From NCBI GenBank assembly GCA_021158265.1, contig JAGGUY010000015.1, positions 1 to 58,813 on the forward strand: a stretch of DNA of 58,813 nt, given 5' to 3'. The stretch comes from Thermoprotei archaeon (GTDB lineage: Archaea > Thermoproteota > Thermoprotei_A > EX4484-217-1). The position numbers and the translations under genes were made by a program. Shown piece by piece: positions 17,636 through 38,495 of this stretch (the first letter of the stretch is position 1; each line of letters opens with the position of its first letter). The notes beneath the pieces were generated by a model, which had not been told where the DNA came from, ran no database searches, and saw only the letters and a program-made list of their open reading frames with translations.

Positions 17636-18430
17636 TTAGCCCTCTAGAATCTCAGCTTTATCTTTAACCAGATTTATTATTTTCTCCTTGGCTTCCTCAA
17701 CATATTTTCTTGCTTCTTCAAGGCTTTTACCGGATGATGTTATGTGAAGCTCTATTACTGGCTTATAGCCTTCAGAACCTTTAGGATGGCTCTTTATGTA
17801 AACTTTAATTACCTTCTTCATTACCTGATCTATGAATGGTGCTAAGCTTGATTCTGGAATCCCCTTTATGATTATCGTATCCTCATAGAATGCCAATTTT
17901 GGCCCTCTGTCTCTTAGTAATGACTCGACATATTTCTCAAACATTTCTTTCATTTCCCTTGGAACACCGGGTAATGCAATAATTAGTGATTTCCCTTTTT
18001 CAACAAGTATTCCGGGAGCTGACCCTGCAGGATTGGGTATGGGCTTTGCTTTTTCAGGCATTTTAGCAAGTTTTATCCTGTGCTTCGTTAGCTCTAAACC
18101 CATTTTCTCGTATTTTTCACGAACAAGTTTTAATGCTTCTTCATTCACAATCCATTTCATATTTAATGCATAGGCTAATGCTTCACTAGTCTTATCGTCA
18201 AATGTTGGTCCCAAACCTCCCGTAGTAATTATCACTTTCGCGTCTCTCGCTAATGCTTCTCTAATAGCAGACGAGATTTCCTCGATTTCGTCGGGAACTA
18301 CAGTTATTCTCCTAACCTTATATCCAAGTAATGTAAGTTTCCTTCCAAGCCATGTAGCATTAGTATTAACAGTTTTGCCTATAAGTAATTCGTTTCCTAT
18401 GCTAACTATCTCAGCCGTAAACATTTCCAC
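17636..18430 (-). CDS. CinA-N/MoCF-biosynthesis domain protein
   Basis: 264-aa ORF; 'AEIVSIGNELLIGKTVNTNATWL' and 'VIITTGGLGPTFDDKT' are hallmarks of the CinA/MoaB-like domain. Confidence 0.75.
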   Translation of the reverse strand: MEMFTAEIVSIGNELLIGKTVNTNATWLGRKLTLLGYKVRRITVVPDEIEEISSAIREALARDAKVIITTGGLGPTFDDKTSEALAYALNMKWIVNEEALKLVREKYEKMGLELTKHRIKLAKMPEKAKPIPNPAGSAPGILVEKGKSLIIALPGVPREMKEMFEKYVESLLRDRGPKLAFYEDTIIIKGIPESSLAPFIDQVMKKVIKVYIKSHPKGSEGYKPVIELHITSSGKSLEEARKYVEEAKEKIINLVKDKAEILEG

Positions 18431-35641: not shown

Positions 35642-36310
35642 ATGGAGATAAAGATAGCTGAGGATGTAAGAAAGCTTGGTGTATTCATAGCTTACCGCTT
35701 TATACACAACATTAAAGTTGAGAAATCAAGGGAAAAACTAAGAGAGGAAATAAACAAGGTTGTAAATGCTGTTAGAAAAAGGTACCGTTTAGATGAGCTC
35801 AAAAATGACCCCATAATTAGGGCGTACCGGAAATTTCTTTGGAAAATAGGAATAGACCCTACTAAGACTAGGCCAAGTAGTGAAGCACTTTTAAGACGCA
35901 TTCTTAGAGGTAAAACTTTACCTTTAATAAATAACGTTGTTGATATTGGAAACTTAGTAAGTGTCAAAACAAGAATTTCCATAGGAATATATGACTTAGA
36001 CCGTATAGAAGGCAACCTAACATTTAGGTTGAGTAGAGGAGGCGAAGAATTCAACCCCATAGGTTCAAACAAATTCTTCTTAAGAGGAGGTATCGTAGTT
36101 CTTTCAGACGGTAAAAGAATAATTCATGTGTATCCTCACAGGGATTGCCAAGACACTATGATTACTTTAAACAGTAAAAACGCAATAGCCATTGGTGCAG
36201 GAGTTCCGGGAATACCTAAAGAGCACGTTTTCCAAGCCATTGAGTTATTAGGAGAATACATTGTAAAATTCAGCGTGGGAGAACCTTCCGAAACGATATT
36301 GGTTAATTAA
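35642..36310 (+). CDS. stand-alone B3/B4 tRNA-binding domain protein (PheRS-beta-like)
   Basis: 222-aa ORF; 'ALLRRILRGKTLPLINNVVDIGNLVSVKTRISIGIYDLD' is typical of the B3_4 domain. Confidence 0.7.
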   Translation: MEIKIAEDVRKLGVFIAYRFIHNIKVEKSREKLREEINKVVNAVRKRYRLDELKNDPIIRAYRKFLWKIGIDPTKTRPSSEALLRRILRGKTLPLINNVVDIGNLVSVKTRISIGIYDLDRIEGNLTFRLSRGGEEFNPIGSNKFFLRGGIVVLSDGKRIIHVYPHRDCQDTMITLNSKNAIAIGAGVPGIPKEHVFQAIELLGEYIVKFSVGEPSETILVN

Positions 36311-36374
36311 TAATAAAGCATATGTTTAGTTAAGCTTTAAGCTATGGAAAAGAAAAGGTGATTTCTAATTATTT

Positions 36375-37469
36375 CTAAATACTCTTTAGTGCTATTAGGT
36401 AAGCGGATGCTGTGTGCTTGTCTAATCCATATCTCATCATTATGTCATCGTGTTCTCTCGAACGAGTTGTACCTTTTGGATTCACATAGTTTACACGTAA
36501 TCCGTAGATGGGCGCTTTCATCGCTATCATTTCTATGATTCTATTTCTAAATATGGATATTCTCCAATTATAGTTTCTATGTAGTCGCCTACCATTCTTA
36601 ATCCAGAAGAACCTTAACCTACCCATTACTTCAGGGTTTTCAAGAACTATAGTTGATACTCCATGGTTGTATGCGCATCTAAGCATCTTATGCACTATCA
36701 TACCAATAACACTCCACGCCCTACTTCTTGGATATCCTCTAGCCGATATTTCTCTGAACCAGAAGGTTTTTGCATCCCTCAGCCTACCATCCGCATCAGT
36801 TATTGCTAAGTTAATCCTATCGGTATTGACATCCACGCCGCCAATTAGATTTCCTTTAGGTTCATCATATCTCTTCGCATGCTTTAGATAGAAATCATAG
36901 GATACTGAGATATGTATCTCTCCTCTAACATACAACTTACTATCTCTAACACCATAGTCTCTAATAATGAGCTTTGGCATGTACTTCTCCCTTAACTCAA
37001 CGACTTCTTTGAGGAGGTCTGCTTGACCCTTGTTTGGTTTAGCGTTTATTAGAATTCTATCCTTTGAGCCATCATAGCCATAGGTTGTTATCAGCGCCGA
37101 GCCATCCTCGTAGACCCTTATGACATTACCGTTTACCTCTCTCTCGTAGTGTTGGAATAGTAACCAATCAGATAGCTCTACATTAGAATAATCTATGCCG
37201 AGACTCCTAGCAGACTCCCATATACCGTAGACTAAGTATACGACACCATAAGAATACCTCTTATTAGGTATAAGCTCATAAGCCTTATTTTTAAACAACT
37301 TTATCCAAGCAACCTTAGATGGTACAAGTACATGTTCTAATTGTTTTGACCTAGAGAGGATTCTATGGCATGCAGTCTTAAATAGCCATGCAGTAGATAG
37401 TATCTTCTTTGCATTCTCACCATTAAAGTTGAATGTTAGTTTAATCGTATATAGTGGTTGTTCTTGCAA
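36375..37469 (-). CDS. tnpB: TnpB-like (IS200/IS605 OrfB-type) RuvC-fold protein lacking the zinc finger
   Basis: RuvC-like triad candidates 'GGVDVNTD', 'IVLENPE', 'GLDKHTASAYLIA'; 'YGLRVNYVNPKGTT' matches the TnpB 'G..V..V.P.YTS' block; TTG start at 37469 proposed, 23 nt downstream of a TATA-like box, giving the N-terminus 'MQEQPLYTIKLTF'. Confidence 0.6.
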   Translation of the reverse strand: MQEQPLYTIKLTFNFNGENAKKILSTAWLFKTACHRILSRSKQLEHVLVPSKVAWIKLFKNKAYELIPNKRYSYGVVYLVYGIWESARSLGIDYSNVELSDWLLFQHYEREVNGNVIRVYEDGSALITTYGYDGSKDRILINAKPNKGQADLLKEVVELREKYMPKLIIRDYGVRDSKLYVRGEIHISVSYDFYLKHAKRYDEPKGNLIGGVDVNTDRINLAITDADGRLRDAKTFWFREISARGYPRSRAWSVIGMIVHKMLRCAYNHGVSTIVLENPEVMGRLRFFWIKNGRRLHRNYNWRISIFRNRIIEMIAMKAPIYGLRVNYVNPKGTTRSREHDDIMMRYGLDKHTASAYLIALKSI

Positions 37470-37486
37470 GGCTATAGCCTCAGAAA

Positions 37487-37497
37487 TATTTATAAAA
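37487..37497 (-). promoter_or_regulatory. TATA-box-like element for the TnpB-like gene
   Basis: Minus strand reads TTTTATAAATA, about 23 nt upstream of the proposed TTG start, consistent with a leaderless archaeal transcript. Confidence 0.4.
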
Positions 37498-37512
37498 TAA
37501 AGGTAATGGTGA

Positions 37513-37592
37513 CCTCGGGGTTCCGAGAGCCGTAGGGCTATGAATCCTCGGGCAACCGAGGACGAGCCTCTACGGTGAGGGGCTCCGAGAGG
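37513..37592 (+). ncRNA. candidate structured sRNA (K-turn plus GNRA hairpin within a GC-rich island)
   Basis: Helices 37513-20/37583-92, 37530-38/37566-75 and 37546-51/37556-61; GCAA loop 37552-55; 3-nt bulge UAU followed by tandem G.A/A.G (37542.37565, 37543.37564); strongly GC-rich against an AT-rich background. Confidence 0.35.
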
Positions 37593-37605
37593 AAGCGTAA
37601 TGACC

Positions 37606-37654
37606 CACCTACCGTGACTAAAATATTCAAAAGCAATAAAAACCACGGTAGGTG
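37606..37654. repeat. perfect 11-bp inverted repeat (hairpin with a 27-nt A/T-rich loop)
   Basis: CACCTACCGTG 37606-37616 and CACGGTAGGTG 37644-37654. Confidence 0.8.
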
Positions 37655-37703
37655 AAGAACGCTAAATGTAAACGGGTAAAACACAGCTATTGTTTGAGGT
37701 AAG

Positions 37704-38495
37704 TTGGAAATGAAGCCTAAGATCATAGCAACGTTTGTACCAACTGGTGGTAGGAGAATTGTAGAGCTTGCACTTGAAATTCTTAATAAGCCGGGCTCAA
37801 TAGCTAAGATATCATCTCTTCTTGCAGAGCATAACATAAATATTCTGTGGGGTTTTCATGCTGCAGCACCAGAAGATAAGGTAGAAATATGGGGTCTTTT
37901 CGTAGAAGTACCTAAAGATCTCAACTTGAATGAACTAATTTCAAAACTTAAATCATTAAACGTAGTATATTCTGTACGATATTCCGAAAGAAAGTATGGA
38001 CAATTTCTAGTTGATACACTATACTATCCTATATTGACTACAACAGGGGATCAAGTAGCATTACTCTCATAGAATGAATGCGCTGAATTATTCAAATACA
38101 TTAGAGAGAAATACGGTATTGACGCATTACGTGAAATAGGTAAGAGGCTTATTAAAAAATTCGCTAAAAACATGAGTAAAACGCTTAAAGGTATGGAGCT
38201 AAGTGAGGAAGAGCTGATAAAATACATTGCAGACGCATTAACTGTAAAGGGTTACGGTAAATTTGAAGTTAAAGAAATAAGAGAAAGCGAAGGAATAGTA
38301 ATTTTCTCAGTAACCGAAAATATTGAATGTTCAACACTTAAAGAGTTAAAAGAAAACGCTTGGAAGGGCTTAATTGTTGGAATGTTAGAGGAGCTTGCTA
38401 AGGAGGTTTTTGGTAGAGAGGTTAAGGTTAAAGAAGTAATGTATAAGTGTATCAAACAACCGTATTGCGAATACATTGTAAAGTACAAAGAGTAA
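37704..38495 (+). pseudogene. ACT-domain plus V4R-domain protein interrupted by a single in-frame TAG (38070-38072)
   Basis: Track ORFs 37704-38072 and 38172-38495 share one frame; the 33 codons between them are open and read as protein ('NECAELFKYIREKYGIDALREIGKRLIKKFAKN'); the V4R-like region spans the stop and ends 'CIKQPYCEYIV'. Confidence 0.6.

Follow-up and report, generated by a model that had tools for sequence, protein, structure and literature searches.

The window, i.e. the whole stretch of DNA that was analysed, is a contig of 58,813 nucleotides from a Thermoprotei archaeon. Between a TnpB-like gene and an ACT-V4R gene it carries a segment that is strongly GC-rich (G+C of 0.61 at 37500-37599) relative to the AT-rich genome (about 0.38), as had already been noticed in a first-pass annotation. 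The features of the locus are as follows.

36333 to 36374, no strand: gene-distal end of the element, degenerate (AGCTTT... versus GGCTGTT elsewhere), aligned to the ends of relatives and to the miniature copy on contig C16.
36375 to 37469, minus strand: TnpB-like nuclease gene, 364 aa, with a TTG start at 37469-37467 and the stop codon at 36375-36377.
37470 to 37479, no strand: perfect palindrome GGCTATAGCC, directly 5' of the nuclease start codon, at a position conserved in full-length copies.
37482 to 37497, no strand: BRE-like purine-rich stretch and TATA box (TTTATAAAA at 37489-37497), within the interval that separates the divergent genes.
37508 to 37663, plus strand: structured RNA scaffold with the 5' sequence GGUGAC, predicted from folding and covariation.
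37513-24/37579-91, plus strand: P1, the outer helix of the RNA, including G.U pairs.
Between P1 and P2, plus strand: conserved GAGA/GA internal loop.
37529-38/37566-76, plus strand: P2, containing the 9-bp helix 37530-38/37566-75 with U37569 bulged.
37539-43 with 37564-65, plus strand: K-turn 1, with the UAU bulge 37539-41 and the pairs G37542.A37565 and A37543.G37564.
37546-51/37556-61, plus strand: P3, 6 bp, closed by a GCAA loop.
37594-98/37659-63, plus strand: C-stem of K-turn 2, with the AAU bulge 37599-601 and the pairs G37602.A37658 and A37603.G37657.
37606-16/37644-54, plus strand: P5, a perfect 11-bp inverted repeat with an AT-rich loop.
37664 to 37683, plus strand: host DNA flank, putative guide segment, its length taken by analogy with omega-RNA.

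The predicted folding energy of the segment is -74.4 kcal/mol on the plus strand (z -7.3) and -64.9 kcal/mol on the minus strand. Part of the structure had been drawn by eye in the first-pass annotation, and every listed feature was recovered: the bulged 9-bp helix within P2, K-turn 1, P3 with its GNRA loop, and the 7-mers CCTCGGG (37513 and 37546) and CCGAGAG (37523 and 37585), each present twice. The proposed outer helix stands but is longer than supposed, and the 9-nt/7-nt internal loop it was said to enclose gives way to the GAGA/GA loop. The inverted repeat of P5 is perfect over 11 bp as described; it is not, however, a feature apart, as it stands on K-turn 2 of the same RNA (strands AGCGU-AAU-GA and GA-ACGCU, 37594-37603 with 37657-37663), and both the structured unit and the element end at 37663, not at 37654. 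Not noticed at that stage were K-turn 2, the promoter, the existence of repeated and miniature copies, and the fact that the RNA 3' end is also the element boundary. Both K-turns match the consensus, i.e. a C-stem, a 3-nt bulge, tandem sheared G.A/A.G pairs and an NC-stem.

Further copies, sought as the first-pass annotation had advised, are numerous. The source genome (G000), a 60%-complete assembly, contains 7 copies of the RNA, those outside the window being on contigs C31, C16 (two), C40, C25 and C2/C32. A covariance model built from an eight-sequence alignment of RNA copies gave matches in 45 of the 151 sampled genomes of the class; single genomes hold as many as 14 copies. In the eight-sequence alignment (MAFFT/RNAalifold) every helix displays compensatory changes, and the loop of P3 switches between GCAA and GUGA. 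In an alignment of 62 distinct copies, which was fitted to the model and therefore flatters the pairing figures, standard pairs occupy 93.7% of the cells versus 34-48% in controls whose 3' pairing partners were slid by 1 to 3 columns, double-sided changes occur at 40 of the 47 pairs, and 0 of 500 shuffles match the observed values; these slid controls and the earlier MAFFT/RNAalifold result agree in direction. A count from the pair table puts G.U pairs at about an eighth of the cells, and one pair is U.G in 60 of the 61 rows bearing letters at that place. Because G.U pairs would be A.C mismatches on the minus strand, the structure belongs to the plus strand, as had been proposed.

The K-turns are themselves well conserved. 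In K-turn 2 of the 62 copies G117 is found 61 times, A118 60 times and A207 in every case, while position 206 has G in 50 copies and A in the other 12; K-turn 1 keeps its signature in the copies, some 40, that possess the middle domain. A C-box-like GUGAUGA lies within K-turn 2 of many copies, and genes of the L7Ae family are present in the source genome. As judged from these alignments, the segment is a conserved, plus strand-specific multi-helix RNA structure with two K-turn signatures. The Rfam search that had been suggested returned no matching family, either at gathering thresholds over the whole window or at permissive thresholds over 37300-37800; no tRNA or split tRNA was found for the segment. 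A long ORF across the RNA was considered as coding sequence and rejected: homologues of the nuclease start at TTG/ATG, and the changes are compensatory pairs rather than codon-wise. The longer form of the nuclease ORF, reaching 37646, is an artefact, the annotated N-terminal extension crossing the RNA gene.

Pfam and PDB sequence searches with the nuclease gave no matches, and an NCBIfam search only weak TnpB-related ones. Its AF2 model (pLDDT 88) is matched by Foldseek over the whole length to Cas12f, Cas12k, Cas12m and the TnpB of ISFba1 (E 2e-9 to 2e-4), the nearest structural matches being Cas12f and Cas12k. The 840 homologues mostly measure 363-371 aa and include annotated proteins of Vulcanisaeta and Caldivirga. 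D213 (the RuvC-I Asp), E277 (the RuvC-II Glu) and H352 are invariant in the 35 homologues compared, the last within the RuvC-III motif D350-[K/R]-H352-T-A-S-A-Y, where a His takes the place of the usual catalytic Asp. The interval from RuvC-II to RuvC-III holds no Cys pairs, i.e. the C4 zinc finger is absent. TnpB proteins fall into five major clades, of which RIIIr-4 is one. Loss of the C4 zinc finger and a His replacing the RuvC-III Asp are its hallmarks, and the group is largely archaeal (PMC10691335, Altae-Tran et al. 2023). The nuclease thus appears to match clade RIIIr-4 by its motifs, not by tree placement. The predicted fold and catalytic residues fit an active TnpB relative, whose cleavage chemistry is putative in view of the His at RuvC-III. 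The source genome also encodes an N-terminally truncated paralogue (C26 12879-13601, 240 aa, 35% identity) with no RNA match beside it. On viral contigs neither a 20-mer of the RNA nor the nuclease protein family was found.

In 61 aligned upstream regions a BRE/TATA consensus (a purine-rich BRE, then TTATAA) occupies positions -35 to -25 relative to the first base of the RNA. The RNA thus has, at the level of motifs, its own BRE/TATA promoter, correctly placed for archaeal transcription of the plus strand. In the window copy the spacer between the two genes (37480-37507) measures 28 nt versus 41 nt in the closest relatives: the interval from the TATA box to the start of the RNA is shorter by 13 nt, with the loss of one of two TATA-like boxes. 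The TATA box that remains in the window is about 15 nt from the first base of the RNA and is well placed for a leaderless nuclease mRNA. On the nuclease side of the spacer the palindrome GGCTATAGCC, replaced in other subfamilies by GGGGAATCCCC, is a possible operator for a dimeric DNA-binding protein.

We then considered the linkage between the RNA and the nuclease gene, which the first-pass annotation had wished to see examined. The RNA is divergent from the gene and immediately upstream of it in 17 of 17 loci seeded with full-length nuclease homologues. Among 46 loci seeded with the RNA, the gene is present in 12, always adjacent and divergent, and absent from 34. The nuclease mRNA and the RNA do not overlap: the element extends only about 40 nt beyond the nuclease stop codon, and the RNA stands 5' of the gene and on the opposite strand. 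Most of the other RNA copies are gene-less miniature elements retaining both ends, in which the final codons of the gene and the rest of the far end are joined to the promoter and the RNA. Solo copies distant from any nuclease gene keep the structure intact. At two loci (L021 1188-1489, G003:C8; L022 1122-1408, G006:C43) two RNA genes of the family lie head-to-head with a 39-nt spacer and two TATA boxes, an arrangement conserved in two genera; in both pairs the longer RNA ends 8 nt before the TnpB-like ATG, its 3' flank being the start of the gene itself.

The segment is the RNA module of a TnpB-only mobile element of about 1.33 kb, at about 36333-37663. Its RNA-side boundary is sharp. Two copies in genome G043, 99.3% identical over 1316 bp, diverge exactly after GGGUGAACGGC, where the last helix of the RNA ends, and the same copy boundary (...AACG[C/G]T, then unrelated sequence) is found in G000, G049, G147 and G090 and in all subfamilies. 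As far as these comparisons indicate, the last base of the RNA is the last base of the element. The far end begins with GGCTGTT in both full-length and miniature copies. In the window the subterminal repeat GATTTCTAATTATTTCTAA begins at 36360 and extends some 4 nt into the nuclease stop codon, and the 36 nt at 36360-36395 have a perfect match in the miniature element on C16. The window copy looks partly decayed and, though its ORF is intact, may be impaired, because 13 nt of the promoter spacer are missing and its far end is degenerate. A decayed element is also seen at C25 29418-29663, where all that remains of the nuclease gene next to an RNA copy is its last 28 codons.

Two insertions in the source genome have empty counterparts in congeners. 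In both there is no target duplication; the left junction comes directly after a host GG, and homology resumes at the RNA 3' end within a base. The first is the C2/C32 insertion at the 3' end of upp, where joining the flanks restores the normal C-terminus. The contigs C2 (1-160) and C32 (10476-10684) overlap within this miniature copy and represent one locus; the insertion sits on the last upp codons and lengthens the upp ORF by 13 codons. The second is a divergent miniature copy (C40 about 18085-18340, locus L006) which interrupts a gene for a membrane protein; G001 and G002 have this gene intact. Empty sites were not recovered for the window copy (35642-38495), the locus being rearranged in relatives (G001 to G003 are without the B3/4-domain gene there, and the sister genus is without the ACT-V4R gene), nor for the C16 and C31 copies, whose flanks are not contiguous in relatives. 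The base preceding the far end (-1) is a purine at 31 of 33 sites, and the opening GG of the terminal heptamer is conserved; no clear multi-base TAM was found before the far end at these 33 sites, the -1 purine and the GG alone being conserved. The target motif is perhaps R-G-G.

The two ends of the element resemble each other. The apical loop and 3' strand of P5 form an inverted copy of the far-end subterminal stretch, and the P5 loop and the far end change together between subfamilies (z of 3-8 in 8 of 11 copies; the comparison set 36360-36378 of the window against the P5 loops of the C16 and C32 copies and included loci L072, L034, L036 and L048). Because its loop mirrors the far end, some of the conservation of P5 may reflect a DNA-level role in transposition. 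A search for a Y1 transposase was negative in the source genome (60% complete) and in 4 of 5 multi-copy genomes. A serine recombinase is present in 3 of these 5, only inside separate canonical IS607 elements, and is absent from G043 (complete) and from the source genome (60% complete).

Three readings of the segment had been left side by side in the first-pass annotation, and linkage, boundaries and empty sites best support the last of them, an RNA end element of the TnpB-like insertion in an atypical position. We go further and regard the RNA as probably the guide RNA of a RIIIr-4-like TnpB, read out of the element into the flanking DNA. It is read as a guide because it is structured, ends at the element boundary and is linked to a gene of the TnpB fold, which is the logic of omega-RNA. 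Transcription would start near GGUGAC and leave the element, so that each RNA would gain a 3' tail from its own flank, and the nuclease would use this flank-derived tail as a guide. L7Ae would probably be bound to the K-turns within the nuclease particle; it is the K-turns that suggest it as a component. The nuclease would then recognise and cut the element-free version of the same site, the target carrying a short motif, probably ending in GG, where the far end would lie. Repair from the occupied copy would restore the element, and the miniature copies would use the nuclease in trans. A bolder form of this proposal, which we put forward as speculation with little expectation that all of it holds, is an archaeal three-part nuclease: a zinc-finger-less RIIIr-4 TnpB with a His site, a self-promoted divergent guide RNA, and an obligatory L7Ae on the two K-turns, the apical loop of the RNA pairing with the far end and so joining target recognition to the element ends, faintly like a bridge RNA.

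One alternative is that the structure acts mainly as DNA, i.e. as a folded single strand or an inverted-repeat end for a transposase, the RNA being incidental. The ends of IS200/IS605 elements do act as DNA hairpins; here the terminal bases and a subterminal stretch of 20-40 nt are inverted at the opposite end and co-vary with it between subfamilies, and the miniature elements keep both ends. This seems unlikely nevertheless, because five helices co-vary and lie mostly outside the inverted-repeat part, because GNRA loops and two K-turn signatures are motifs of RNA, and because the BRE/TATA box is correctly spaced to start a transcript at the first structured base. The lack of a Y1 transposase in the source genome and in 4 of 5 multi-copy genomes argues in the same direction.

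We consider equally improbable that the RNA is a non-guiding product of the transposon, which would control expression of the nuclease, serve a toxic TnpB as a kind of antitoxin, or recruit L7Ae to some other end. A toxin-antitoxin-like role has been proposed for the related RHH/MazE-TnpB group (PMC10691335), the RNA and the gene share a compact bidirectional promoter beside a palindromic operator-like site, and one RNA copy in each of G003 and G006 leads directly into the nuclease start codon. But the RNA does not overlap the mRNA and so cannot work as an antisense; the 3' end of a regulator need not coincide with the element boundary; and solo copies remote from nuclease genes keep their structure intact.

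The two other readings of the first-pass annotation, an independent cellular L7Ae-binding sRNA (box C/D-like or other) and a leader of the ACT-V4R gene, placed beside the TnpB-like gene by chance, are highly improbable in spite of the K-turns, the C-box-like GUGAUGA and the co-directional ACT-V4R gene 41 nt downstream, since the module is mobile, present in many copies and set in contexts that have nothing in common, copy number differs among close relatives with orthologous sites empty in congeners, the ACT-V4R orthologues of G001 to G003 are without the RNA, the best Rfam C/D model scores 14.4 bits for a threshold of 45, and there is neither a C'/D' pair nor an unpaired guide by the D box, the sequence beside the D-like GA being paired in P5.

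The proposed guide RNA of the RIIIr-4-like TnpB can be compared with several known systems. To our knowledge, every characterised TnpB has an omega-RNA that is co-directional with the gene and overlaps its 3' end. Here, in contrast, the RNA is upstream, divergent, self-promoted and off the ORF, and bears two consensus K-turns. What it has in common with the omega-RNA (reRNA) of IS200/IS605 and IS607 TnpB (ISDra2; RAGATH-18, PMC11061315) is a structured scaffold at a transposon end linked to a TnpB-fold nuclease, a scaffold/flank boundary at the element boundary such that the flank would supply the 3' guide, and the persistence of gene-less copies. A possible kink-turn has been noted in the RAGATH-18 RNA of IS607, from which an reRNA derives (PMC11061315). 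Neither Rfam nor sequence comparison connects our RNA with these omega-RNAs, and at the canonical IS607 omega-RNA position of co-resident elements its model gives only weak matches, of at most 18 bits. Two of these non-significant matches, of about 18 bits, lie at the 3' end of canonical IS607-type TnpB genes (L117 3131-3239 and L118 3089-3207). Such matches hint at a distant kinship.

Like the RIIIr-4 proteins, the nuclease described here is without the C4 zinc finger and has a His at RuvC-III. No guide RNA of RIIIr-4 is described in PMC10691335, where a long 3' untranslated region is indicated for the RHH/MazE subgroup; here, in contrast to that subgroup, there are only about 40 nt past the stop, the RNA is 5' and the element has no RHH gene. 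The solo copies on C31, C16, C40 and C2/C32, which keep both ends and the RNA without a nuclease gene, are alike the gene-less PATE/MITE-like derivatives of IS200/IS605, but they retain a complete archaeal promoter for the RNA and belong to a family of divergent layout. With the tracrRNA of Cas12f/Cas12k and the omega-RNA of IscB the present system shares a structured RNA encoded by a gene of its own next to a miniature RuvC nuclease, and in IscB the RNA is also on the 5' side of the gene. It differs from Cas12f/Cas12k in having no CRISPR array. The IscB RNA, unlike ours, runs in the same direction as its gene and has a 5' guide; the flank that varies in the present family is 3'.

A full-text literature search retrieved no description of a divergent or K-turn-bearing TnpB guide RNA, nor of a RIIIr-4 guide RNA. 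The omega-RNA logic would appear here in a divergent, self-promoted layout absent from the literature searched. If this is true, an omega-RNA need not derive from the mRNA tail of its own nuclease, which bears on the origin of the separately transcribed tracrRNA-like guides between TnpB and Cas12; a requirement for L7Ae, if true, would be a new link between the archaeal RNP machinery and the nucleases of mobile elements. A scaffold, a promoter, a boundary and a candidate target motif would make the 364-residue thermostable nuclease directly testable. The covariance model is also of use in annotation, since by it many orphan GC-rich "RNA genes" of hot-spring archaea are explained as relics of transposons.
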